From a virus (Duplodnaviria > Heunggongvirae > Uroviricota > Caudoviricetes): a DNA stretch of 64,000 nt. Below, one piece after another: positions 263 through 52,609 of this stretch (positions within the stretch are counted from its first letter, which is position 1; the number at the start of each line of letters is the position of its first letter). The notes beneath the pieces are model-generated. The model saw nothing but the letters and a program-made list of their open reading frames with translations, was not told where the DNA came from and did no database searches. The position numbers and the translations under genes were made by a program. The stretch lies in IMG/VR virus record IMGVR_UViG_2667527582_000007; one strand, given 5' to 3'.

Positions 263-617
263 NNNNNNNNNNCCTCCAATAAGTAGCGGTAAATGCCACC
301 ACCGGAGTTCCTACGCTCATGGGTGGTGACCCGAACGGGGGTAGGAATACCGGCCTTATTGGAAACCGGCCAGCCCGAAGGCTGCCCCGCCCGGACCACC
401 ATTATCTGAAAAGGGCTAAGGTATAAGCACCGCAGCCCGAAAAATGGGTGTGCCTGAGCAACGACGTAAAAAAAGACGCACGGCGCGTCTGGTGTCGCCA
501 ATAAGTAACTCGGGTTCCTACGCCCGGCAGCCGATTTTGCGGCTGCGGGAAAACTATACCTGGAAAAGATATCAGGACGCAAGCCAGAAAAAAGGAGATG
601 AGACTGCAAAGCCAGTT

Positions 618-878
618 TCACGCATGGCCTCCTTGCTCGCGGGCAGCAATTCGCGCCGCCATCCATGCACTGACCTCCGACTGTACCCAGGCCACATTTT
701 TTCCACCCAGTGATATCTGCTGCGGGAAGGCATCGCGGCTGATAAGGTCGTAGATGGTTGAACGGGATAGCCCGCAAAGGTGCATCACTTCAGGTAATCG
801 TATGAAGCGCTCCTGCTGAGCCGGAACCGGGAGCACCGGAGCAGCTGGTGCCGGGGTGGAAACGGAAATACTATTCAT
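618..878 (-). CDS. alpA: AlpA/Vis-family phage transcriptional regulator
   Basis: 86-aa ORF with motif RLPEVMHLCGLSRSTIYDLI typical of the AlpA family. Confidence 0.75.
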   Translation of the reverse strand: MNSISVSTPAPAAPVLPVPAQQERFIRLPEVMHLCGLSRSTIYDLISRDAFPQQISLGGKNVAWVQSEVSAWMAARIAAREQGGHA

Positions 879-1520
879 CTGGCTACCTCTCTAATATGTT
901 TACAACAGTCCGGGCAATTCCATCCGGATTCAGGTAGCTCCTTATTATGTTTATATAAGCGGCTCGCGCATGCTTTATTTATTTGGAGTGAAATGTTGAT
1001 TTCTCAAAAAATAAAACAGCTAAATACCGTATAAAACGGACAAAAACAAACCATTCCTTTATGAAATATAATAAGGAGCATCAAGAATAAAAAAATCTAT
1101 TACACCAGGCAGGATCACAGTTCAAACCTGAAACAGGCCATGCCATTCCGGGATTTACATCATAAGGACGAAGACATCGGAATAATAAAAGAGCTAAAAA
1201 CGACCAGGGCAAAACAGTTCATCATATGTATTAATTAAGTTACTGACTAAATAAATCAAATTATTTTTATCCTTCCGCATGTATCCGCATGTGTTTAATG
1301 AGCATCAGATAGATTCATTTTTATGAGTATTTCCCCGAAATGCAACAGGGTGACGGGAGGTTGAATGTTGAATTATTAAACAGAAATAAGACACCTTTAA
1401 TTCTATACGTCGAATAGTGCTGAATACTTGTGAAAAGTGGTGAGGGAAAAAAAGCCAGTAATAAACTGAAATAAACATCGCGGCTTATATGAGAAAAAAA
1501 TATAAGTGTAATTTTATTTC

Positions 1521-1538
1521 TGTGAACAGTCATGAACA
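1521..1538. promoter_or_regulatory. TGT-N12-ACA dyad (Ogr/Delta-type activator site signature) within tgaacagt direct repeats
   Basis: tgt gaacagtcatga aca; decamer tgaacagtag repeated at 1533-1542 and 1608-1617; lies in ~1 kb AT-rich noncoding DNA between alpA and the ogr-like gene. Confidence 0.3.
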
Positions 1539-1877
1539 GTAGATGACCACTACCACTCAAACACTACACCCCTCAACCCCATGTATTTACTATCTTTTTA
1601 CTAAGGTGAACAGTAGTGAATAGTTTGTATTAAAGGAAGGGTGAATATCAGACATGACGCCTTTCTCTGGCTAGCCAGAACAAGGTCATTGTTCTGTCAC
1701 TGGCACAATCCCCCTCGGTAGTGCCCTTGTATGAGTACCGGCACAATTGACACGACAACAAAACACTAATGGTGGATGCATTAATGCGTGCTAATGCATC
1801 AGCCAGTTTCACCCCGGCAAAACATAAAGTTTTCCTGGCTCGCCTCAACAGACTTAATGCAAAAGGAGGGTACTGAT

Positions 1878-2150
1878 ATGGCCCTGAAATGTCCTGAATG
1901 TGGCACGGTCGCTCATGCCAGAACCAGCGCCTATGAAGCCCCATCGGTTAAGCGCTCATGGTATCAGTGCCAGAATCTTGAATGTTCGTGCACATTTACT
2001 GCCCTTGAAAGTGTCGACACGATAATTATGAAACCCCATAAACCAACGGCGCCGGAGCCTAAATCGAGGAGCGATTCCCTCGAGCGTCAGCCACAGCCCC
2101 TGGGCCGCTACGGTTCAGCCTGTACTCTTAAAGACCGTCATGCACAATAA
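1878..2150 (+). CDS. Ogr/Delta-family zinc-finger late-gene activator
   Basis: MALKCPECGT...AHARTS...YQCQNLECSCTF matches the P2 Ogr / P4 Delta Cys4 pattern; RBS aaaggaggg upstream. Confidence 0.8.
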   Translation: MALKCPECGTVAHARTSAYEAPSVKRSWYQCQNLECSCTFTALESVDTIIMKPHKPTAPEPKSRSDSLERQPQPLGRYGSACTLKDRHAQ

Positions 2151-2169
2151 AATGAGGAGGAACAACGAT

Positions 2170-2362
2170 ATGGCAGAACAACAATTGACGGAAAAACAGA
2201 TTCAGGCTGCAACCGGACATGTAGTGACACTCCTCGCAAGGGCAAAGAAACCGCTTCAGGATGCGGATTGGCTCATGAATTTGCCTGCAAATGAAATAGC
2301 CCGCGAGACGGAAAAACTGACAAAAAGCCTTTCCTCCGACTGGCAGTCCCGAATTATCGACC
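2170..2362 (+). CDS. hypothetical satellite-phage protein, 3' truncated by gap
   Basis: ORF MAEQQLTEKQIQAA... with RBS gaggagg 8 nt upstream; no family recognised. Confidence 0.35.
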
Positions 2363-2372
2363 NNNNNNNNNN

Positions 2373-2650
2373 TGAACGGAGTCTTCATGCCAGCGGGTAT
2401 CGCTGTAATGGGTCAGCTGGCGATTCTTGTCTCCTGCATAGCTGAACGACGTCACCATCCCCAGTGTGTCCGTAAACTCATAACGGTATTTCACGTTAAT
2501 CCCGTTCAGATCATCACTGCCGGGAACGTTGGTCCGGGCATGAAGATACCCCGCGCTCAGCGTGGACTGATGTTCAGACGCCCATGCAGGCGCACAGGAT
2601 ACGGCCAGACAAATGGCTGCGGACAAAATGGCTGCACAAACTTTACGCAT
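2373..2650 (-). CDS. lom: Lom outer-membrane protein (Ail/OmpX family), C-terminus lost in gap
   Basis: MRKVCAAILSAAICLAVSCAPAWASEHQSTLSAGYLHA... matches lambda Lom signal peptide and N-terminus. Confidence 0.85.
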
Positions 2651-2673
2651 AATTACCTCTCGCTTTTCTGCAA

Positions 2674-2700
2674 TAAAAAAGGCGTCATTTCTGACGCCCG
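2674..2700 (-). terminator. rho-independent terminator between J and lom
   Basis: GC hairpin ggcgtcatttctgacgcc followed by T-run on the minus strand; same element at 43076-43106. Confidence 0.5.
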
Positions 2701-2716
2701 TTCTGGGTTATAAAAT

Positions 2717-3246
<530 letters not shown>

Positions 3247-3256
3247 NNNNNNNNNN

Positions 3257-3949
<693 letters not shown>

Positions 3950-3959
3950 NNNNNNNNNN

Positions 3960-4085
3960 CAACATTTTAGCGGCGGGGCACGCCGTTCTTGCCTGTGGAG
4001 AGATGGTGCAGTCAGGCCGCCCGTTGAAGCAGGAACCCACCGAAATGATTCAGGCGACAGCCTGAACGTAGCAGGGATCCACGTC
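3960..4085 (+). mobile_element. tnpB: IS200/IS605-family tnpB 3' end plus IS right end
   Basis: Near-identical to 47030-47154; encodes ...[34 protein letters not shown] then stop. Confidence 0.6.
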
Positions 4086-4095
4086 NNNNNNNNNN

Positions 4096-4204
4096 CGCCA
4101 TCACGTCGGCAAACATCGACCGTCTGCGTTTTACTTTCGGCGTGCAGGCACTGGTGGAAACCACCTCAAAGGGGGACAGGAATCCATCGGAAGTCCGCCT
4201 GCTG
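4096..4204 (+). CDS. J: J protein N-terminal-region fragment
   Basis: ITSANIDRLRFTFGVQALVETTSKGDRNPSEVRLL matches gpJ. Confidence 0.7.
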
Positions 4205-4214
4205 GNNNNNNNNN

Positions 4215-4569
4215 NCACCAGTCGCTGCGTGAGGGTTTTATCGGCCTGGCTGGGTGTCGCCTCGCCGGAAGGATGGTTATGCGCCAGTATTACTGCTGCG
4301 GCATTGAAGTGCAGAGCACGTTTGACCACTTCCCGGGGATGCACCTCAGTACGGTTAATCGTGCCGGTGAAGAGCGTTTCATGGGCAATCAACTGATTCT
4401 GGTTGTCCAGATACAACGCCCGGAACTCTTCCCGCTCAAGTGCGGCCATATGCAGTCTCAGCCATTCACGGACAGCGTGTGAGGAGGTGAAGGCCACCCC
4501 AGGTTCATGCAGGTGCCGGTCCAGCGCCCTGAGCGCCCGCTGAATGAGACGCCGGTCCTGTGGCGTCAT
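4215..4569 (-). CDS. RadC-like JAB-domain protein (prophage YeeS/YfjY/YkfG family), 3' truncated
   Basis: MTPQDRRLIQRALRALD...ILAHNHPSGEATPSQADKTLTQRL; HNHPSG JAB motif. Confidence 0.8.
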
Positions 4570-4599
4570 CTCGCCGGGTAAAAAGGAAANNNNNNNNNN

Positions 4600-4745
4600 A
4601 CATCAAATAAAACAAAAGGCTCAGTCGGAAGACTGGGCCTTTTGTTTTATCTGTTGTTTGTCGGTGAACACTCTCCCAACCAGGACAAATCCGCCGGGAG
4701 CGGATTTGAACGTTGCGAAGCAACGGCCCGGAGGGTGGCGGGCAG
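4600..4745 (+). terminator. rRNA operon T1-type terminator region
   Basis: caaataaaacaaaaggctcagtcggaagactgggccttttgttttatctgttgtttgtcggtgaac...tccgccgggagcggatttgaacgttgcgaagcaacggcccggagggtggcgggcag closely resembles the rrnB T1 terminator; hairpin about 4615-4650. Confidence 0.7.
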
Positions 4746-4755
4746 NNNNNNNNNN

Positions 4756-4883
4756 CGACACGCCGATCACCCGGACCATCACGTCGGCAAACATTGACCG
4801 ACTGCGTTTTACCTTCGGTGTGCAGGCACTGGTGGAAACCACCTCAAAGGGGGACAGGAATCCATCGGAAGTCCGCCTGCTGG
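4756..4883 (+). CDS. J: J protein fragment
   Basis: DTPITRTITSANIDRLRFTFGVQALVETTSKGDRNPSEVRLL. Confidence 0.7.
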
Positions 4884-4893
4884 NNNNNNNNNN

Positions 4894-5272
4894 GCAAAAA
4901 GTGAACTTTTGATGATCTTTCCCTGGCCGTTGACTCGATTGCCGTAGCTCGAACGCAAGCACTCTTATCATTCAATGCCATATTGTTCAAAATATTAAAA
5001 ACATTATCTTCGCATTTTTTGCAAATTTTTATTTGCCCGAGTATAAATGCTCCGATATCTCTACGGATATAATTTTTATCAGAGCAGAACTCAATTGCCA
5101 ATCTAACAGCGTCTTGCCCACCTCTTAACTGTAATACTCTGGCAGATGAAATCCTTTTCAAGGAATTGTGATCATCAAGTAAGCGAAATAATTCATCATC
5201 ATTTAGTTTCTTACATTGATTATATAAACCATACTCTTTACTTGCCTTTCTTTTCTGGTATGTATTTGACAT
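4894..5272 (-). CDS. yibA: HEAT-repeat protein YibA-like (Rhs-element associated), 3' truncated
   Basis: MSNTYQKRKASKEYGLYNQCKKLNDDELFRLLDDHNSLKRISSARVLQLRGGQDAVRLAIEFC... resembles E. coli YibA from memory; AT-rich. Confidence 0.55.
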
Positions 5273-5292
5273 TGCAGGAACCNNNNNNNNNN

Positions 5293-5400
5293 CTTATCGT
5301 TGGCGTCCTTCCACTCTTTCGAAAACTCATCCAGTTTGCTGGCGTTATCCTCCGTCAGGTCGACTTTTTCCAGCAGCTCCTTGCCGAGATGGGATTCGGT
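5293..5400 (-). CDS. J: J protein C-terminal-half fragment
   Basis: Minus-strand translation [36 protein letters not shown] matches gpJ repeat motif. Confidence 0.6.
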
Positions 5401-5410
5401 NNNNNNNNNN

Positions 5411-5516
<106 letters not shown>

Positions 5517-5593
5517 NNNNNNNNNNTCAGGTTGTACCAATGCTGCATGCAGTGAATGCGTAGCATGGTTTCCAGCGGATAAGNNNNNNNNNN

Positions 5594-5789
<196 letters not shown>

Positions 5790-5799
5790 NNNNNNNNNN

Positions 5800-5897
5800 T
5801 GAGCTGCTGCACCATATTCCTGAACAACTGAGTAAACGAGAGAGGTACACCGACAAATGGCAGCGACGCACACACTCCCTCTGGCGTCACCGGGCAT
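5800..5897 (+). CDS. tail protein K C-terminus overlapping tail protein I start
   Basis: ELLHHIPEQLSKRERYTDK in one frame, MAATHTLPLASPGM (gpI start) in the overlapping frame. Confidence 0.7.
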
Positions 5898-5907
5898 NNN
5901 NNNNNNN

Positions 5908-6086
5908 TGCTGCATTTCCTCTTCTTATTTTGCAGTCGTCTTCATTCATTACCACGTCCAGACGCCAGTGCAGCTTATTCTCCACGTGCCAGTGATTTCG
6001 GATCGCTGTGGCGAATTTCTCAGCGGTTAAATCAGCAGAACTGATATAATATCTGACCGTCATTTCTGGCTCTTTCTTTTGTTCTG
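5908..6086 (-). mobile_element. ISAs1-family (H-repeat) transposase, C-terminal fragment
   Basis: [52 protein letters not shown]. Confidence 0.7.
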
Positions 6087-6096
6087 NNNNNNNNNN

Positions 6097-6299
6097 GCGG
6101 GCAGGGCGATGTCGGTTTCACCGGGAAGGACCTTTGCACCGAGCAGCGGATTGACCGGATGGCCGGACGTCACCCCGCCGGGGCACACCGAACAGGCCAC
6201 GCCGGTGGGGGCACCGATGCGTACCCCGGCTGAACCCTGGACAATGCTACCGCCATACTGCGTCATGTCGCCCTGACGCGCCGCCGGTTTTCCGCTCAT
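6097..6299 (-). CDS. rhs: Rhs protein N-terminus (PAAR-like domain), truncated
   Basis: MSGKPAARQGDMTQYGGSIVQGSAGVRIGAPTGVACSVCPGGVTSGHPVNPLLGAKVLPGETD matches E. coli Rhs N-termini. Confidence 0.8.
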
Positions 6300-6344
6300 C
6301 TGCTCATCCTTGTTTTATCGGGTTATTTGTCTGCNNNNNNNNNN

Positions 6345-6790
6345 CGCCAGGTCGTGCCAGAAAGTCATGGCAAACTGCGCGAGCGTCATATAGCCGCCTT
6401 GTTGTAATGACAACATTTTGCGGCTATTCTTGAAGTGTCTGGTTTCAAGATTAGCCCCCGTTTTGTTGTCAGGTTTTACCTCTCAACGTGCGGGGGTTTT
6501 CTCTTTCCAGCAACCAATGCCACCAGGGATAAAGCCCCCGCAACATTGCGCCTCACCGGATAATTCCGGCTTGGTGTGGATACTACTTCTCAATTCATCT
6601 TCACTTCATCCCTGAAATGTTTGCAATAAAGAGTACATTCCGGCTTTTCAACAGCTGTTGCAGTCGTTTCATGAGTGCTCTGGATGATGCTTCCAGCTCG
6701 GGTTGCCAATATTTACTTGTGGAAGAGATAAAGACAAAAATGGCCGCAGGCTGTTACCCCTGCGGCCGGTTTCGGGCGCATATTGCCATC
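6345..6790. repeat. ldr: LDR (long direct repeat) unit, partial, with truncated ldr toxin gene at 6345-6389 (minus)
   Basis: Minus-strand YMTLAQFAMTFWHDLA is the Ldr toxin N-terminus; the rest matches the LDR copies at 9585-9965 and 32090-32848. Confidence 0.7.
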
Positions 6791-6800
6791 NNNNNNNNNN

Positions 6801-7036
6801 TTGGGCAGAATATTTAATTGCGGATTCGTTTGAGAGTTTACGGACTTTTGAAAAGTGATGGTGGTGGGGGAAGGATTACTCAGCGCTGCGCGCTTCGCCC
6901 TTCGGGTCGTTGCCTGCGGCAACGCTCTCTCGCTGGCGCTCGAGTCGAACCTTGGTCGAAGCTTCTCATCCTTCCCCGCATGGGCAGAATATTTAATTGC
7001 GGATTCGTTGGGAAGTTCAGGGACTTTTGAAAGTGA
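6801..7036 (-). repeat. tyrT-operon distal repeat region (partial tRNA-Tyr 3'-end copies)
   Basis: Repeated tggtggtgggggaaggatt blocks followed by diverging sequence, as in the tyrT 3' repeats. Confidence 0.45.
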
Positions 7037-7935: not shown

Positions 7936-8688
7936 TCAGATTCCCTGGTGAGTAAGAATTTTACTTTCTGAACTCCTCTGAGAGTATTGACTTGGAGAAA
8001 CACCAAAATAACGTCTAAATACATAAGTAAAGTATGAGACACTGGCATAACCACAGACCTTAGCTACTTTACTAATAGGATAACAACGAGTGCTGAGTAA
8101 ATATTCAGCCATTTGCATCCTTTCATCAAGTATGATCTTACTGAATGATACCCCCTCTTCTTTCAATTTCCTCTTTAGTAAACTTTCGCTGAGATATAAT
8201 CTTGATGATATATCCTTAAGACGCCATGGTGCAGATAAATCCGTATGAATAATCGTTTTAACTTTAGCCTCTGTGCTTTTCAAACATTCAAACAGAAATA
8301 CTCCAAATTGTTTTTCAGAAGAAAATGCAGAGAGACATGTAAAAGCAATAGACTCATCAAAAATTTCTATGTATTCAGCACAGTGATTAGCCCAACTAAT
8401 TAATCCTTTAATTAAACTGAAGTCAGCAAAGTTTATTTTTAAATAAGATGGATATTCCCTACAATCAGAAATATCCCTTAAGTTATTAGCTTTCAAATAG
8501 CGACTAATAAACTCAGCGCCAAAATCCGCCACTATCACTCTTTCAGGATATGTCAGGAAAAAATCTCTAGAGCTAGAGTCGACAAGTACAGATGAACCTC
8601 TCTCCAGAAACACACTCTCTTTTCCGAAATAAACATCAAAGGACTCCAAAATCAATATAACTGAACATGTAGTTGCCATATCATCCAC
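7936..8688 (-). CDS. AraC/XylS-family transcriptional regulator
   Basis: 250-aa ORF with C-terminal HTH region ...KVAKVCGYASVSYFTYVFRRYFGVSPSQY; AT-rich island-like context; exact orthologue not recognised. Confidence 0.7.
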   Translation of the reverse strand: MDDMATTCSVILILESFDVYFGKESVFLERGSSVLVDSSSRDFFLTYPERVIVADFGAEFISRYLKANNLRDISDCREYPSYLKINFADFSLIKGLISWANHCAEYIEIFDESIAFTCLSAFSSEKQFGVFLFECLKSTEAKVKTIIHTDLSAPWRLKDISSRLYLSESLLKRKLKEEGVSFSKIILDERMQMAEYLLSTRCYPISKVAKVCGYASVSYFTYVFRRYFGVSPSQYSQRSSESKILTHQGI

Positions 8689-9263
8689 CCAACTTAACTG
8701 AAACCAGGATGAAGTATATGCATATAAAGTTCACTTTGCCAAACGTCAGTATAAAAAACCACATAAAAAATAGGGTGTGATAAAAAATACCGTAACAATA
8801 AAGCAAAGGATTATAAATTCCGTTACAGTTACAAATGATACTCAAGAAACAATTCCTTAGGAAAAACTTATTTACAGCCAATAAGTAAGACACTTATATG
8901 ATATCAAGTTTTCATAAAACATAACTAGGCTAAATAGCTGCGCCTAATACCGCTACACTTTTGCCAGCCCATGTTTGCCTCCGGGTATTGACCCCTTCTC
9001 TACGCAACTTCAGTTCCCACCACCAACTTTGCGGCAGCTTTGTAGGATCAATGTCTAAAAGAATAATGGTGACCGATAAGAAAACGACTGAATAACTGCA
9101 AATTTTCGCTCAAAACCTTCCTGTCAGATCCATAGCGAATCAAGTGCTGAATGTCACAGTATCGAACAGAAAACAGTGACGATCTAACCCTTCAAGAATA
9201 TTCTACGATTGTTCTGTTTAGGAAAAGCAAGGCGGGAAGTCGGGAGATAAGTCATTGATAAAG

Positions 9264-9325
9264 TGGCGGAGAGAGGGGGATTTGACCCCCCCGGTAGAGT
9301 TGCCCCTACTCCGGTTTTCGAGACC
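9264..9325 (-). other. partial copy of tRNA-Ser(CGA) 3' portion (att-core-like remnant)
   Basis: tggcggagagagggggatttgacccccccggtagagttgcccctactccggttttcgagacc matches the serU 3' ~60 nt with 2 mismatches, then homology ends. Confidence 0.6.
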
Positions 9326-9514
9326 GATGATACAGAGTCGAAAAATCAAAGAGTTAAAAATTTCTCTTGGAATAAATGTCTTAAAATTGTACACGAAAAA
9401 TCAATGAATTACATAACATTAAAGAAGAATATTCCAAGCCTTCTTGAGGCTACCACCTGTTTTCAGGTGTCATTCAGACGTGATTTGCCCCAGATTGGGA
9501 AAGCACGCTTTTTT

Positions 9515-9574
9515 GGTGATGCTGCCAACTTACTGATTTAGTGTATGATGGTGTTTTTGAGGTGCTCCAGTGGC
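9515..9574 (+). mobile_element. IS1 left terminal inverted repeat and 5' end
   Basis: ggtgatgctgccaacttactgatttagtgtatgatggtgtttttgaggtgctccagtggc. Confidence 0.85.
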
Positions 9575-9584
9575 NNNNNNNNNN

Positions 9585-9965
9585 CGCCGGCTTGGTGTGG
9601 ATACTACGACTCAATTCATCTTCACTTCATCCCTGAAATGTTTGCAATGAAGAGTGCATTCCGGTTTTTCAACAGCTGTTACAGTCATTTCATGAGTGCT
9701 CTGGATGAGGCTTCCAGCTCGGGTTGCCAATATTTACTTGTGGAAGTGATAAAGACAAAAATGGCCGCAGGCTGTTACCCCTGCGGCCGGTTTCGGGCGC
9801 ATATTGCCATCACGGCAGCCTGACGCCCGTTTTCACCTTACTTCCGGTTACGCCACCAGCTGACAATCGCTGCGGTAATAATCCCCGCCAGGATCGGTGC
9901 TGCCAGGTCGTGCCAGAAAGTCATGGCAAACTGCGCGAGCGTCATATAGCCGCCTTGTTGTAATG
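9585..9965. repeat. LDR unit
   Basis: Same repeat as 6345-6790 and 32090-32848. Confidence 0.75.
9838..9945 (-). CDS. ldr: Ldr type I toxin (35 aa)
   Basis: MTLAQFAMTFWHDLAAPILAGIITAAIVSWWRNRK; stop at 9838-9840, start codon at 9943-9945. Confidence 0.85.
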   Translation of the reverse strand: MTLAQFAMTFWHDLAAPILAGIITAAIVSWWRNRK

Positions 9966-10434: not shown

Positions 10435-10750
10435 TTGGCCGTAAATAATAATCCTATGCGCTTCACTGATCGCAGTGGTGGTGTGTCCCGCCGTAGAGTT
10501 ATTCTGCATTTTCCTGAGCAGATAGCACCGGAAGAACGCGATCCGCAGCTAAAAGATAAAATTGCTCGAGAACTTGCTGTGATTGTTCGCCAACTCATGC
10601 AACGTTTCTGCGATCCGATGAGCGCCAGAACATTGCTTCAGTCGCAGCAGAATTCTGATGAGGCTCTCACCATCAAGCGTGATGCCGATCCAGCATTTGA
10701 TTTTTGTGGCTATCTTGAGGCATTACCCGACACCAACGGCATGTTTATGG
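10435..10750 (+). CDS. P4 alpha-like primase-helicase, C-terminal-region fragment (tentative)
   Basis: ...RFTDRSGGVSRRRVILHFPEQIAPEERDPQLKDKIARELAVIVRQLMQRF...; assignment by context with the other alpha fragments. Confidence 0.35.
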
Positions 10751-10760
10751 NNNNNNNNNN

Positions 10761-11278
10761 ATTCGTCGTGGCCTCGTCACCGTTAATCTGCGTGCCGGTG
10801 CCACCGTTGGTGATGGAACTGTCGCCTTCGTTATTGACGATGGCCTTGTCGCCGTCAATCTGGATACCGATGGACTCCGGATCGGTGACGGTCATGGTGC
10901 CCTTGTTATCCACCGTAGCGCTGTCGCCGGTGATATCAATACCGTGACCGCCGCCGCTGACATCCAGATCGCCGTCCTGAATCACCTTCCCGTTATTGCC
11001 AGCAATTTCCGTACCGGTGGAATCCTTGCCGTCAACGGTGGTTTTGCCGTTGTTGTTTGCCGTGGCGTCATCACCATTAATCTGGGTGCCGGTGCCGCCG
11101 TTGGTGATGGAACTGTCGTCTTCGTTGTTAACAACCGCCTTGTCACCGTCGATCTGGATACCCATGGACTCCGGATCGGTGACGGTCATGGTGCCCTTGT
11201 TATCCACCGTCGCACTGTCGCCGGTGATATCAATCCCGTGACCGCCGCCGCTGACATCCAGATCGCCGTCCTGAATCA
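10761..11278 (-). CDS. repetitive beta-solenoid adhesin-like passenger repeat, fragment
   Basis: Tandem ~96-aa units IQDGDLDVSGGGHGIDITGDSATVDNKGTMTVTDPES.GIQIDGDKAVVNNE.DSSITNGGTGTQINGDDATANNNGKTTVDGKDSTGTEI.GNNGKV; family not assigned. Confidence 0.4.
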
Positions 11279-34013: not shown

Positions 34014-35140
34014 NNNNNNNNNNNNNNNNNNNNNNNNNNNNNNNNNNNNNNNNNNNNNNNNNNNNNNNNNNNNNNNNNNNNNNNNNNNNNNNNNNNNNNN
34101 NNNNNNNNNNNNNNNNNNNNNNNNNNNNNNNNNNNNNNNNNNNNNNNNNNNNNNNNNNNNNNNNNNNNNNNNNNNNNNNNNNNNNNNNNNNNNNNNNNNN
34201 NNNNNNNNNNNNNNNNNNNNNNNNNNNNNNNNNNNNNNNNNNNNNNNNNNNNNNNNNNNNNNNNNNNNNNNNNNNNNNNNNNCTTTTTTCTCAGCTATCG
34301 TCCTCTTATTTTGCCGTTACATTTCTTTTTGCACTCTAATGATTAATTTACAATAATAATATCGGTAATTATTGAGTAATAATAAATTGATTATTGCAAA
34401 TGTAATTTAATTCCATCTTCGCGTTATATTCCAATCTTTAATCTCCGCATGGAACAAGTTGCATGCGTGACTATATTAAGACAACTTATAACCACCAAAA
34501 CATTTGCTTTGCAAGCAAAAACAGTGACCATTGACTCTAAGAAAATTCCGATCTATTGTTAGGATCATCAAAGTTACTTAACAGTATTCCGAAATGAAAA
34601 TACAAAGCAAGCTAATTGTCTTATTAAACATTATCATTGCATTTATATTATTTGAGCTTTTAGCTCAAAAATTTGGTTTGAGTACATTATTTTAAAGCAA
34701 GATAAACAATATCGGGCACTCTAGTTTTTATAATTAACAATTAAACGTCCATAAAATGTTATTTACTTTTCTTCGCTATTGTCATATCTTAATATTGTGG
34801 CTTACGCCACTCTACTTTCATCACATTTTGTACGTTTATGTACTCGCCATGAAGCTCTTTCATGGCGATTTTTTATTCTTAATCCAAGAACATACTCCCT
34901 ACCTATAGCAAAATCACTTTTTTAACAAAAGAATAACGTATTTAGGTAATCATTACGAATTTACCCTATAGGTGCTACTGGCCATTCAATATCCGGTGCT
35001 ACTGATGTATCAACACTGTTCAGCAACACCCGATATGTCTTCCATGCCGTCAGTAACGATGTCTCTTCCTCCGTTGCGATCTCCAGCTCAGCAACAGTCT
35101 GAACGTACCAGGAACAGCCTCCTTCAGGGCTTGAAGGATA

Positions 35141-44406: not shown

Positions 44407-45129
44407 ATATCAGTTAATTATTGCAGCGGACCGCGATCTGAATGGTTCAGGCCAGAACAGGGCGGAAGCTGCTGCAAAAGCGTGTCAATGTGACATTGTC
44501 CTGCCACCGGTTTTTGGTGACTGGAATGATGCGCTTGCCCATTACGGAGAGGAATCCACCCTGAAGGCAATTCTTGAGGCTTTGAAGCCACATAACGCCA
44601 GTCCTTTCGACACGATGAGTGAAGCAGAATTCACAGCGATGAGTGTCAGCGAAAAAGCTCAGAGGGTTCGGGAGCATTACAGGGATGCGCTGGCGGTTGA
44701 TCCGAACGGGCAGCTTTTATCCCGCTATGAGTCTGGGGCGTGGAAAGTGATTTCTCAGTCTGATTTTGCCCGAGATGTCGCAGCCCTTTTCCAGCGCCTC
44801 GGTGCACCGTTTTCCTCAGGAAAAATTGCCTCACTGGTGGAAACATTAAAGTTAATTGTTCCGCAGCAGCAAAATCCGGCACGTCATCTGATCGGTTTTC
44901 GTAATGGCGTCCTCGATACGCGAACAGGGCTGTTTAGTCCACACTTTAAAGAGAACTGGCTACGTACCCTGTGTGAAGTCGATTTCACGCCACCGGTAAA
45001 TGGGGAAACGCTTGAAACTCATGCCCCGGCATTCTGGCGATGGCTGGACAGGGCCGCCGGGCACGAGCCAGCAAAACGCGACATTATTCTCGCAGCGCTG
45101 TTTATGGTGCTGGCGAACCGCTATGACTG
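44407..45129 (+). CDS. P4 alpha-like primase-helicase, central fragment
   Basis: ...IIAADRDLNGSGQNRAEAAAKACQCDIVLPPVFGDWNDALAHYGEESTLKAILEALKPHNASPFDTMSEAEFTAMSVSEKAQRVREHYRDALAVDPNGQLL...; continuous with the toprim-containing fragments at 49267-50008 and 60303-61040. Confidence 0.55.
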
Positions 45130-48773: not shown

Positions 48774-49252
48774 CTTGTCACCGGAATGGCTGTTCTTCAG
48801 GATTGCTACGAAAAACCTGCCAATGCTCAATGTGAGCAACTGGTTTCCCTGATTTATCTGATGACAGAGCAGCTTGATGGCGTGGTACAGCGTTGCCAGG
48901 ATGACCTGATGAACATGGAGGTGGTGCAATGAAATCACGCACTCTTTCCCTTTCACTTCGGGTAGCGTTGTATCGCCGCGCGGTAGCCTGCGCATGGCTG
49001 AGTGCCTGCCATCAGCAAAACCGCCACCTGCAGCTGACTCTGGATGAAATTGAAACCGCTATTGCCCGTGAGCTTGAAGGATTTTATCTGCGACAGCACG
49101 GGCAAACAAAAGGCATGGAAATCGCCTGCGCCCTGCTTTCAGACCTGATGGAATCCGGCCCTCTAATGTCCTGTCCCGCACTCTCCCAGCTCGGAATAGC
49201 CGTAATGGATGAGTTATGCGTCCGTCACATCAAAAAGCCGGTTTTACACTGA
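48774..49252 (+). CDS. two small hypothetical ORFs upstream of the alpha primase (satellite-phage context)
   Basis: ...[52 protein letters not shown] and [58 protein letters not shown]...; families not recognised. Confidence 0.3.
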
Positions 49253-49266
49253 GGGAGAACTGCATC

Positions 49267-50008
49267 ATGTCAGGAATGAAAGTCAGTCAGGCCGTGAAGG
49301 CTGCCCGCGGTCACTGGGCTCAGATTCTGCCAGCGCTGGGCGTGAATATATTGAAAAATCGCCATCAGCCTTGTCCGGTCTGTGGCGGTAAAGATCGTTT
49401 TCGCTTCGACGATCAGGAAGGACGCGGAACATGGTTCTGCAATCAGTGCGGAGCCGGGGATGGTTTAGCGCTTGTCACCAGGGCACTGAATGTGGATATC
49501 AGTGAAGCAGCTGACAGGATACATGGACTGACACATGGTCTCTCTATAGCTAATTCCGAAGTCAAGACGTTAACCGCCGATGCCGATAGCGGGAAAGATG
49601 CAGCGGCAGCACTTGCCGCGCGACTGCTGCAAGCCTCGCGTGAATCTGCCGGAAACACTTATCTTACACATAAAGGTTTCCCGGAGCATATTTGCCATGA
49701 GCTGACTTCAGATCATAAAACCGGTGGGGTGATGTTCCGCCCCGGTGATTTGATCGTCCCGCTCTATAACACTGACGGGGTGCTGGTGAATATTCAGCTT
49801 ATCAGTGGCAATGGTAGCAAGTGTTTTCTTAAAGGGGGTCAGGTTAAGGAGGCCTATCATCTGATAGAAGGGAGCGGGAGTTCAGTAAGAAGGATGTGGA
49901 TTGCGGAAGGCTACGCCACGGCGCTTACCATTCATCATCTGACAGGAGAAGCCGTCATGGTGGCATTTTCGGCGGTCAACTTTCTTTCTCTGGCCAGCGT
50001 TGCCCATA
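49267..50008 (+). CDS. P4 alpha-like primase, N-terminal part (zinc-binding and toprim regions)
   Basis: MSGMKVSQAVKAARGHWAQILPALGVNILKNRHQPCPVCGGKDRFRFDDQEGRGTWFCNQCGAGDGLALVTRALNV...MWIAEGYATALTIHHLTGEAVMVAFSAVNF. Confidence 0.6.
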
Positions 50009-52357: not shown

Positions 52358-52609
52358 NNNNNNNNNNCACATAGGCGTTTGCCTTACGCGCGGTCGTGTC
52401 AGCCAGTAGCGGCAGCAGCTCTTCTTTTTCAGTAATCAGCCCGGCCAGTTCTGTGGCTGTTTCCTGTTGTTCCAGATACTCAGCCCGAAGAGCTTTCATC
52501 TCCGGTGTTACGATGCCGCCGCTCTGGTTAAGCAATTCCCTGAACTGCGCCCGATTGTCTTTGCTGGCCTGCTCAGTTTCGGTCTGATGCTGGCGCAGAN
52601 NNNNNNNNN

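Follow-up and report, generated by a model that had tools for sequence, protein, structure and literature searches.

We identified the 2.1-kb contig at positions 273-2362 of the DNA under analysis (the window, a stretch of 64 kb) as, very probably, the regulatory and replication core of a P4-like satellite integrated in an E. coli genome. A previous sequence-only reading had proposed a P4-like satellite fragment here, and this identity is borne out by gene, RNA and origin homology to P4, with all the features it listed found in their places. However, its functional interpretation of the DNA between alpA and delta, namely, a Delta/Ogr dyad in otherwise featureless sequence, proved to be wrong, since this spacer consists of a predicted replication origin and a likely late promoter, Psid. 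The window comprises 97 short contigs linked through spacers of 10 N, and the studied region is exactly one of them; the contigs on either side of it in the window are not its physical neighbors. As alpA and the ogr/delta gene lie on one uninterrupted contig that is collinear with complete elements, both belong to the same element. The features of the contig are summarized in Table 1, and their order is the same as that in satellite P4 (NC_001609), i.e., immunity RNA, vis/alpA, an origin with TGTTCACC-type repeats, a double TGT-N12-ACA Psid and a late operon. At the level of sequence, our comparisons establish the homology and the position of each part, the deletion described below and the recurrence of this deletion, while the functional reading of the whole contig is homology-based, in that the binding of alpha and Delta and the transcription start site are predicted from P4.

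Table 1. Features of the P4-like contig and its probable continuation (window coordinates)
Feature	Position	Strand	Basis or remark
5' part of the PGAP 'Icd-like protein' ORF (Pfam Phage_ASH)	274..621	-	PF10554, E 2e-28
C4/CI-type antisense immunity RNA	319..406	-	RF01695, 83.4 bits vs gathering 45, E 2e-16, full-length
Early/immunity transcript leader: isrK-like element with terminator hairpin (469-546) and c4-a1b1 target element (507-559)	469..559	-	Rfam
alpA, P4 vis orthologue (excisionase / late-promoter regulator)	618..878	-	PF05930, E 4e-20
Conserved alpA-upstream block	905..1002		Runs of invariant columns, 9-way alignment
10-bp tandem repeat TCCGCATGT(A/G), two copies	1274..1293	+	TRF and repeat search
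Origin array A, three degenerate 10-bp units, consensus GAATAGTGGT	1412..1443	+	TRF, period 10, 3.2 copies
Origin array B: GTGAACAGT, ATGAACAGT and a degenerate third unit	1521..1551	+	Aligns with P4 type-1 repeats 9310-9338
Origin array C: GGTGAACAGT, AGTGAATAGT	1605..1624	+	Aligns with P4 repeats 9396-9413
Lone repeat GGTGAATA, complement of TATTCACC	1640..1647	+	Same sequence as the P4 crr variants (4366, 4546)
Perfect palindrome CTGGCTAGCCAG, closely preceding Psid	1667..1678		Inverted-repeat search
Psid dyad 1 (TGT-N12-ACA), predicted Delta/Ogr site	1690..1707	+	Aligns with P4 dyad 9493-9510
Psid dyad 2 (TGT-N12-ACA)	1728..1745	+	Aligns with P4 dyad 9531-9548
Deletion scar, 35-codon ORF (new ATG and last 34 psu codons)	1769..1876	+	Junction ~1768/1769
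delta, single-domain Ogr-size zinc-finger late activator	1878..2150	+	PF04606, E 2e-16
sid2, Sid-family paralogue, first 64 codons, cut by contig end	2170..2362	+	270 aa at full length
Probable continuation of the element: hypothetical gene, DUF5375, alpha N-terminus	48774..50008	+	

Deletion of sid and psu from the late operon

The Ogr/Delta activator proposed by the sequence-only reading is a protein of 90 aa with the motif C-X2-C-X22-C-X4-C, which is that of the Ogr/Delta family (PMC3931495). It shares 93% identity with the Delta protein of EC261 and 43% with the first half of P4 Delta, and consists of a single Ogr-like domain, whereas P4 Delta is a tandem of 166 aa. The contig has ~92% nucleotide identity and the same gene order as elements of the EC261 type (E. 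coli/Enterobacter), which are arranged as alpha-DUF5375-hyp-Ash-AlpA, ori, sid-psu-delta-sid2, cargo and int. However, in these relatives sid (250 aa) and psu (184 aa) are retained downstream of Psid and ahead of delta, while the window does not have them. Homology to the region upstream of sid stops at ~1767, where homology to the 3' end of psu begins, and compared with the closest E. coli relatives ~1.2 kb is missing, with sid lost entirely and psu lost except for its last 34 codons. The deletion starts ~15 nt inside the sid leader and stops where 34 psu codons remain. The psu remnant has 88% amino acid identity to residues 151-184 of EC261 Psu and keeps within it the ribosome-binding site of delta, AAGGAGG; it is the sole Psu match in the window. 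With sid and psu removed, Psid would now drive delta directly, followed by sid2 and a cos site, the last as seen in relatives. The late operon is accordingly delta-sid2 in the window, versus sid-delta-psu in P4.

The canonical sid is deleted, and the ORF at 2170-2362, which had been left unassigned, turned out to be the start of a Sid-family paralogue, sid2. Its N-terminal fragment is 94-97% identical to full-length proteins in EC261 and in the IMG/VR relative L004. We based its identity on PHROGs, profile-profile comparison and fold search. It matches PHROG 6165 at 2e-21, and the sid2 family matches the Sid profile in hhalign with a probability of 99.2% (E 2.6e-19), versus 26% for Psu. Among PDB structures, the closest fold is that of P4 Sid (7jw1_E), though the match is weak (E 0.01) and the model is of no more than moderate confidence (pLDDT 65.7). 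No match at E <= 0.001 was returned for sid2 by the Pfam, NCBIfam and PADLOC profiles, and a PDB sequence search gave only noise.

The same junction is found in four other assemblies, namely, L004 (96.5%), Enterobacter sp. L005 (98.0%), and the metagenome contigs L025 (98.0%) and L026 (90.0%). Two other hits, L006 (a Methanosphaera MAG) and L024, are chance 22-mer junction matches that were ruled out by absent homology. This recurrence bears on whether the contig is debris of a decaying, non-functional satellite, with the loss of sid and psu being erosion, a reading that we consider unlikely. In its favor, all of sid and most of psu are lost with a psu stub left behind, the junction occurs in none of the 5,426 complete E. 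coli genomes, the window holds no int, cos or cargo, and the assembly is highly fragmented. On the other hand, the identical junction is present in the above four independent assemblies at 2-10% divergence, and the full-length sid2 and delta genes are under purifying selection between these deletion carriers, with dN/dS values of 0.19 for sid2 and 0.15-0.20 for delta. Moreover, the L004 element is complete from int to alpha and includes a cos-like site (L005 also has such a site, and L026 carries int), and the carriers possess three distinct cargo sets (SIR2-HerA, Gabija or restriction-like). The erosion reading also has against it that P4 mutants in sid and psu are still packaged, and that satellites in Pantoea and Pseudescherichia have a delta-sid2 layout natively.

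The latter are the Type B-like elements of Pantoea ananatis and Pseudescherichia vulneris, which are arranged as alpA, ori, Psid-delta-sid2-cargo-int and contain a single Sid/Psu-family gene, with sid and psu natively absent. The psu stub seen in the window is missing in Pantoea, where delta directly follows the Psid leader, and sid2 shares only ~62% identity with the Pantoea-type protein. Judged from these sequences, the delta-sid2 layout in the window is secondary, resulting from deletion in a three-paralogue element, and that in Pantoea is native. Psu-less P4-like satellites correspond to Type B of Moura de Sousa and Rocha, for which it has been proposed that they may depend on a Sid variant alone (PMC8628076). 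Instead of a decaying remnant, we infer a lineage that is still mobilizable, in which sid2 would serve as a capsid-size factor, or multimers would be packaged in full-size heads. More tentatively, and with a chance that we place well below even, the carriers may represent a P4-like sub-lineage that has discarded sid-psu and retained the module Psid-delta-sid2, in which one divergent Sid paralogue is the only capsid-directed protein. In E. coli/Enterobacter, this sub-lineage would have originated by a single 1.2-kb deletion from a three-paralogue hybrid and would since have spread and swapped its defense cargo, the layout being native in the Pantoea type.

Origin repeats and the late promoter in the AT-rich spacer

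The spacer (879-1877) has a GC content of 33-36% over 873-1672, versus 51-57% in the flanking genes. It had been described as devoid of convincing ORFs, in agreement with which no CDS is annotated among the matches listed in E. coli genomes; coverage of the stretch reaches 80% or more in 184 genomes. There were zero matches to Rfam families in 879-1877, and promoter and terminator scans yielded sites no more numerous than in shuffles. In the P4 record (NC_001609), the vis-sid interval contains an annotated rep_origin (9086-9809) whose type-1 repeats are located at 9310-9413, and positions 1522-1624 of the window align with P4 9311-9415 at 70.5% identity over 105 nt (E 1e-12). The three copies of tgaacagt (TGAACAGT) previously noticed were confirmed at 1523-1530, 1533-1540 and 1607-1614, and on the other strand they align with the annotated P4 type-1 origin repeats (TGTTCACC). 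Five GTGAAYAGT-like units lie on the same strand within 195 bp (P ~2e-7). In total, type-1 repeat sites are seen at 1605-1612 (exact), 1640-1647, 1522-1530, 1532-1540 and 1616-1624, plus the array at 1412-1443. The core of array A, GTGAATAGTGGTGAGG, is kept in the alignment of divergent relatives; the reverse complement of array B, ACTGTTCAC, equals the type-1 repeat of P4 together with the flanking bases; and 1605-1612 in array C is the exact complement of P4 TGTTCACC. Arrays B and C together form a 29-nt direct repeat with a spacing of 84 bp, and the lone repeat at 1640-1647 is not kept in EC261. The tandem repeat at 1274-1293 is possibly the counterpart of the P4 10-bp 'ori type 2' repeats, though its sequence differs.

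Based on the homology to P4, the position and the clustering of repeats, we predict that the spacer is a P4-type replication origin. Its three arrays of 9-10-bp (G)GTGAAYAGT units, the complement of P4 type-1 ACTGTTCACC, with AT-rich flanks would be bound by the alpha primase-helicase of the element, leading to replication start. In P4, a second cis site, crr, is located beyond alpha (4291-4590), and the corresponding place is outside the contig. None of the papers in the collection searched mentions TGTTCACC in the context of P4. The spacer is ~890 bp in the window, versus 552 bp in P4; in the alignment, P4 shows one large gap, which leaves the window with ~340 additional bp that are in large part A-rich.

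At the right edge of the spacer, we found a double dyad (1690-1745) that is homologous to P4 Psid and had gone unnoticed. TGT-N12-ACA is the consensus of Ogr/Delta-type activators (PMC3931495). Both dyads are perfect in all nine relatives of the 9-way alignment, with variable interiors, and the spacing from the first to the second is 38 bp, exactly as in P4. A Delta/Ogr-responsive promoter, Psid, is therefore likely at this location on comparative grounds, and Delta, or an Ogr-type activator of the helper, would bind its two sites. Julien and Calendar in 1995 reportedly placed the centers of the P4 Psid sites at -55 and -18; with the upstream site centered at ~-55 as in P4, transcription would start at ~1753. 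The palindrome at 1667-1678 has 11 of its 12 positions invariant in the nine relatives, the twelfth being variable, and at the equivalent place P4 has CCTGGCTTGCCGG.

The two Psid dyads are located 170 bp rightward of the TGT-N12-ACA at 1521-1538 that the sequence-only reading had singled out. This dyad does exist, but its assigned role as an Ogr/Delta site is not supported, for it is formed by two adjacent origin repeats. It is highly improbable that it constitutes an Ogr/Delta-dependent promoter element, even though it is a perfect TGT-N12-ACA, is kept in eight of the nine relatives, and overlaps with TTCACA-N16-TATATT (1526 to 1499), a leftward promoter of sigma-70-like type. Both of its halves align with P4 type-1 repeats, and its interior is conserved as much as its half-sites, unlike those of the Psid dyads. 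In the E. coli relative LAU-OXA, the first T is lost and the dyad with it, while no counterpart was seen in the Pantoea spacer over its aligned 3' part. The P4 repeat cluster contains zero TGT-N12-ACA dyads, the only perfect ones in the P4 vis-sid spacer being PLL (9133) and the two of Psid (9493 and 9531). In addition, no downstream gene is within reach. The window contains seven such dyads, versus 14.9 expected from shuffles, thus a single dyad is unremarkable, and one per 64 kb is below the chance expectation; three of the seven fall in 225 bp (Poisson P ~2e-5). Nevertheless, since the dyad is kept in eight of nine close relatives, additional Delta binding may occur there.

alpA and the immunity RNA region

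As previously read, the gene at the left border of the spacer encodes an AlpA-family regulator, a protein of 86 aa with 64% identity to P4 ORF88/Vis (E 3e-41) and 98.8% to its EC261 homolog. The conserved block upstream of alpA is presumed to be the leftward promoter region. A search upstream of alpA, including this block, for a Delta dyad equivalent to PLL revealed neither a perfect dyad nor a conserved near-dyad, whereas P4 has the perfect dyad at 9133. Two stretches, ~945-1008 and ~1319-1380, resemble the P4 PLL region, and neither is assignable.

Leftward transcription would pass through alpA, then the early leader, and then the C4/CI-type antisense RNA. The family of the latter, RF01695, belongs to Rfam clan CL00128, and its match in P4 is at 8420-8507 on the minus strand, inside the old 'cI' ORF. 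In P4, the C4/CI-type RNA maintains immunity through premature termination of the early transcript. The leader matches RF01394 (75.8 bits) and RF03163 (49.7 bits), both above gathering, contains a terminator-like stem with a T-run at 490-474, and has a folding z-score of -4.2. The isrK-like match lies 72 nt past the vis stop codon in P4, with equal spacing in the window, and the order of the Rfam immunity elements is common to both. The PF10554 match of the 'Icd-like' ORF covers residues 22-116, precisely the interval occupied by the RNA elements. An excess of third-codon-position substitutions is absent in ORF nt 61-305 and present from nt 306 to the end. The part of this ORF on the contig thus probably consists of RNA genes and is not translated, as these sequence patterns suggest. 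The left ~350 bp with this region had been missed previously, as had the sid/psu deletion and the Sid-like nature of the last ORF.

The element and its meaning for P4-like satellites

The core used by SatelliteFinder for P4-like membership comprises int, psu, delta, sid, alpA, ash/epsilon and alpha. Matched components here are delta, alpA and the ash/immunity region, plus alpha via other contigs with inferred linkage. As had been reported, alpha-primase fragments are located elsewhere in the window (10435-10767, 44408-45127, 49216-50007 and 60305-61039); at least two alpha genes are present in the genome. The contigs 48774-50008, 44407-45129 and 10435-10750 tile collinearly on L025 at 98.8-99.4% identity, adjoining our contig; from this tiling, they probably continue the same element. 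Neither an integrase nor a cos site was found in the 64-kb window; matches to int, SIR2-HerA and DRT3 were also absent from it. The contig has no cargo gene, as noted before, and the cargo of this copy was not recovered. Although the very short contigs and at least two P4-like copies in the genome both favor mis-joins, it is next to inconceivable that the sid-psu gap is a chimeric join of a poor short-read assembly, as IMG/VR, GenBank and ENA assemblies of other samples contain the identical 22-nt junction and are collinear over all 2,090 bp.

The element is an ordinary kind of satellite in a modestly unusual variant, and the advance is modest because P4-like variants lacking core genes have already been catalogued. 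Nonetheless, a ~900-bp 'empty' AT-rich stretch, for which the matches listed in E. coli genomes show no annotation of any feature, can now be labelled as a P4-type origin and Psid, and the TGT-N12-ACA match inside the origin stretch should not be taken as a Delta site. The annotation of the 'Icd-like/Ash' CDS is likewise affected, as its first third appears to be immunity RNA genes. The recurring delta-sid2 lineage without sid and psu provides a small testable case of whether one Sid-family protein is enough for capsid hijacking, or whether such satellites persist and spread without size redirection. Should sid2 by itself resize capsids, or be adapted to another helper capsid, the Psid-delta-sid2 layout would be a natural minimal hijacking module.

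The contig and its satellite genes

The 64,000 nucleotides (positions 1-64000) consist of 97 short contigs (57-3,751 bp) separated by 10-N spacers, together with one 269-N run at 34014-34282, and features on different contigs are therefore not physically adjacent. The segment 273-2362 coincides exactly with one of these contigs. Since the neighbouring contigs hold prophage fragments and a RadC-like JAB protein that are unrelated to the satellite, position within the window is uninformative on linkage. The larger housekeeping contigs (bcsEFG, cbl-nac) are 99.5-99.9% identical to E. coli, indicating that E. coli is the host.

The P4-like satellite recognised in the sequence-only reading is borne out as a real satellite core, the parts of which can now be named. 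Both the AlpA ORF (618-878, minus strand) and the Ogr/Delta ORF (1878-2150, plus strand) strongly match their Pfam families, and Delta carries the Ogr zinc motif C5-X2-C8-X22-C31-X4-C36 (PMC3931495). The spacer between them has a GC content of 33-36%, versus 51-57% in the genes, and is longer than that of satellite phage P4 (NC_001609) by roughly 340 bp, much of the extra being A-rich. No CDS is annotated under the E. coli genome matches listed for it, with 184 genomes covering at least 80% of its length.

The two main Rfam families matched at the left end also follow vis in P4, in matching order, and the C4 match there lies within the historical 'cI' ORF; this end is therefore a P4-type RNA immunity region. 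These RNAs, the isrK-like leader and the C4/CI RNA, are precisely what is covered by the CDS that PGAP calls 'host cell division inhibitor Icd-like protein' and by the Pfam match to Phage_ASH. Over its initial ~305 nt the Icd-like ORF has no excess of third-codon-position substitutions, the remaining part does, and the N-terminal third of the annotated family may consist of translated RNA genes.

Features of the contig, its neighbours and related elements
Feature	Position or source	Strand	Remark
C4 antisense RNA, full-length	319-406	-	Rfam, above gathering score
isrK-like element with terminator hairpin	469-546	-	Rfam, above gathering score
c4-a1b1 target element	507-559	-	Rfam, above gathering score
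Icd-like ORF	274-621	-	homologous CDS in L001 8800-9348
Additional repeat array	1412-1443		10-bp period
Origin repeat unit	1522		GTGAACAGT
Origin repeat unit	1532		ATGAACAGT
Origin repeat unit	1605		GGTGAACAGT; other strand exactly TGTTCACC
Origin repeat unit	1616		GTGAATAGT
Origin repeat unit	1640		GGTGAATA; same as P4 crr variant TATTCACC
Palindrome CTGGCTAGCCAG	1667-1678		11/12 positions invariant; just upstream of dyad pair
Lambdoid prophage fragments (Ail/Lom, tail tip protein J C-terminal domain); RadC-like JAB protein	2375-2650, 2720-3244, 4216-4569	-	contigs adjoining 273-2362
EC261-type three-gene loci	L001 10510-12919; L011, L018, L019		
Junction carrier L004	IMG/VR contig		96.5% identity
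Junction carrier L005	Enterobacter sp. UNJFSC 003		98.0% identity
Junction carrier L025	ENA metagenome contig		98.0% identity
Junction carrier L026	ENA metagenome contig		90.0% identity

Putative replication origin and predicted Delta-type promoter

The three copies of TGAACAGT and the TGT-N12-ACA dyad at 1521-1538 are present as first described. A single such dyad is unsurprising in the window (7 seen versus 14.9 expected); three of the seven are clustered in a 225-bp stretch of this contig (P about 2e-5), and a 195-bp stretch holds five GTGAAYAGT-like units on one strand (P about 2e-7). In the P4 GenBank record, the replication origin (9086-9809) lies between ORF88/vis and sid and includes six 'ori type 1' repeats at 9310-9413, which with their flanks read ACTGTTCACC (complement GGTGAACAGT). 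In alignment, window 1522-1624 pairs with precisely this repeat cluster (P4 9311-9415; 70.5% over 105 nt, E 1e-12), and the two regions were also compared in a multiple alignment. By this homology, we identify the spacer repeats as a putative P4-type replication origin.

The dyad TGTGAACAGTCATGAACA at 1521-1538 had been put forward as a candidate Delta-dependent promoter; the alignment with the P4 cluster makes it two adjacent origin repeats, and this mechanistic lead is most likely wrong. Three observations speak against a Delta site at this position. The P4 cluster contains no dyad. ATG replaces TGT in the E. coli relative LAU-OXA, and by reading no dyad is visible in the Pantoea spacer over its aligned 3' portion. 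Furthermore, the interior of the 'dyad' is conserved as strongly as its ends, a signature of selection on the repeat rather than on TGT/ACA half-sites. The first origin repeat is overlapped by a sigma-70-like leftward promoter (1499-1526, minus strand; TTCACA-N16-TATATT, 10/12 matches), which might serve origin transcription or act as a distal leftward promoter; by our reading of the nine-way spacer alignment, it is kept in the E. coli relative EC261 and weaker in remoter relatives.

The predicted Delta-type promoter instead lies 170 bp downstream of this origin dyad. The P4 vis-sid spacer has one perfect dyad upstream of vis (9133-9150, in the region of the leftward late promoter PLL) and two upstream of sid (9493 and 9531), with two more elsewhere in the genome versus 2.35 expected by chance. 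Window dyads 1690-1707 and 1728-1745 align with the pair upstream of sid and share its 38-bp spacing; across the nine-way alignment, which reaches relatives of ~69% identity, TGT and ACA are invariant in both and the 12-nt interiors variable. We thus place the predicted late promoter Psid at 1690-1745 rather than at 1521-1538. Julien and Calendar (1995) reportedly found the Psid sites protected by Delta to be centred at -55 and -18, and by analogy transcription would start near 1753. No perfect TGT-N12-ACA occurs upstream of alpA (879-1400 searched), whereas P4 has its PLL dyad there. The P4 PLL region is resembled by each of two blocks with internal repeats, one at about 935-1008 and the other at about 1319-1380.

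Loss of sid-psu and the delta-sid2 pair

The closest complete E. coli elements (EC261 and seven others, about 92% identity) have the order alpha-DUF5375-hyp-Ash-AlpA / ~900 bp / sid-psu-delta-270-aa ORF-cargo-int. The window matches them to about 1767, roughly 10 bp short of the sid start codon, and homology picks up again 34 codons from the psu end, the deletion having left a 35-codon ORF (1769-1876) and the AAGGAGG ribosome-binding site of delta. Given the predicted start, Psid is intact and would now drive delta directly. None of 5,426 complete E. coli genomes spans the junction; its exact 22 nt recur in four other assemblies, with 273-2362 collinear over its whole length, and two further 22-mer matches were rejected as chance. 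Of these carriers, L004 is complete (int, SIR2-HerA, cos-like site, sid2, delta, ori, alpA, immunity region, DUF5375, alpha, AbiH); L005 and L025 carry Gabija, and L026 a restriction-like helicase together with an integrase of 62% identity. Comparisons between the deletion carriers give a dN/dS of about 0.19 in sid2 and 0.15-0.20 in delta. We therefore take the deletion to be a shared, propagated state and neither a lesion confined to one copy nor a misassembly. The cargo diversity is by itself no sign of great age, since quick cargo exchange on identical cores is documented in P4-like elements (PMC13586616).

The ORF at 2170-2362, previously left unassigned, contains the first 64 codons for a protein of 270 aa that belongs to the Sid family by profile comparison (99.2% probability, E 2.6e-19, 213 columns; only 26% probability against Psu), and we name its gene sid2. 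It shares 94-97% identity with its full-length counterparts in EC261 and L004; the family (45 clusters; Enterobacter, Citrobacter, Klebsiella, Pantoea, Cronobacter, Pseudescherichia) matches PHROG 6165 at 2e-21, and the protein is 28% identical over 200 residues to the same element's own Sid. Its AlphaFold model (pLDDT 65.7) is a long helical hairpin whose best PDB match, P4 Sid in procapsid structure 7jw1 (E 0.01, TM about 0.5), is weak but consistent with the Sid identity. EC261-type satellites of E. coli, Enterobacter and Citrobacter thus encode three members of the Sid/Psu family, namely sid, psu and the post-delta sid2. Between L004 and EC261, dS is 0.05 in sid2 versus 0.35 in delta, which points to recombination with a breakpoint separating the pair.

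On L025, the stretch immediately beyond 273-2362 is tiled in collinear order by contigs 48774-50008, 44407-45129 and 10435-10750 (98.8-99.4% identity), from which we infer that they continue the same element; its int, cos and cargo were not found within the 64-kb window. Contig 52368-52599 is another sid2 piece, and 60303-61040 covers part of the same alpha sequence as the tiled contigs but is only 96-97% identical to them. At least two alpha primase genes, and with them two or more P4-like satellites, must therefore be present in this genome.

In satellites of Pantoea ananatis and Pseudescherichia vulneris, delta-sid2 alone follows the origin, with delta directly after the Psid leader in the Pantoea satellite; through its deletion, the window lineage has therefore converged on a layout native elsewhere. 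The differently organised locus L014 (JGI 3300014897 contig, 2282-6813) encodes, on one strand, DUF5375, an 890-aa primase (DUF927 type), a 116-aa Ogr/Delta and sid2; delta and sid2 therefore move together as a module among satellites of differing backbone. The window lineage fits the 'psu-less Type B' class, in which a Sid variant has been suggested as possibly acting alone (PMC8628076). The element is of an ordinary kind, the recurrent delta-sid2 variant lacking sid-psu being its mildly unusual aspect.
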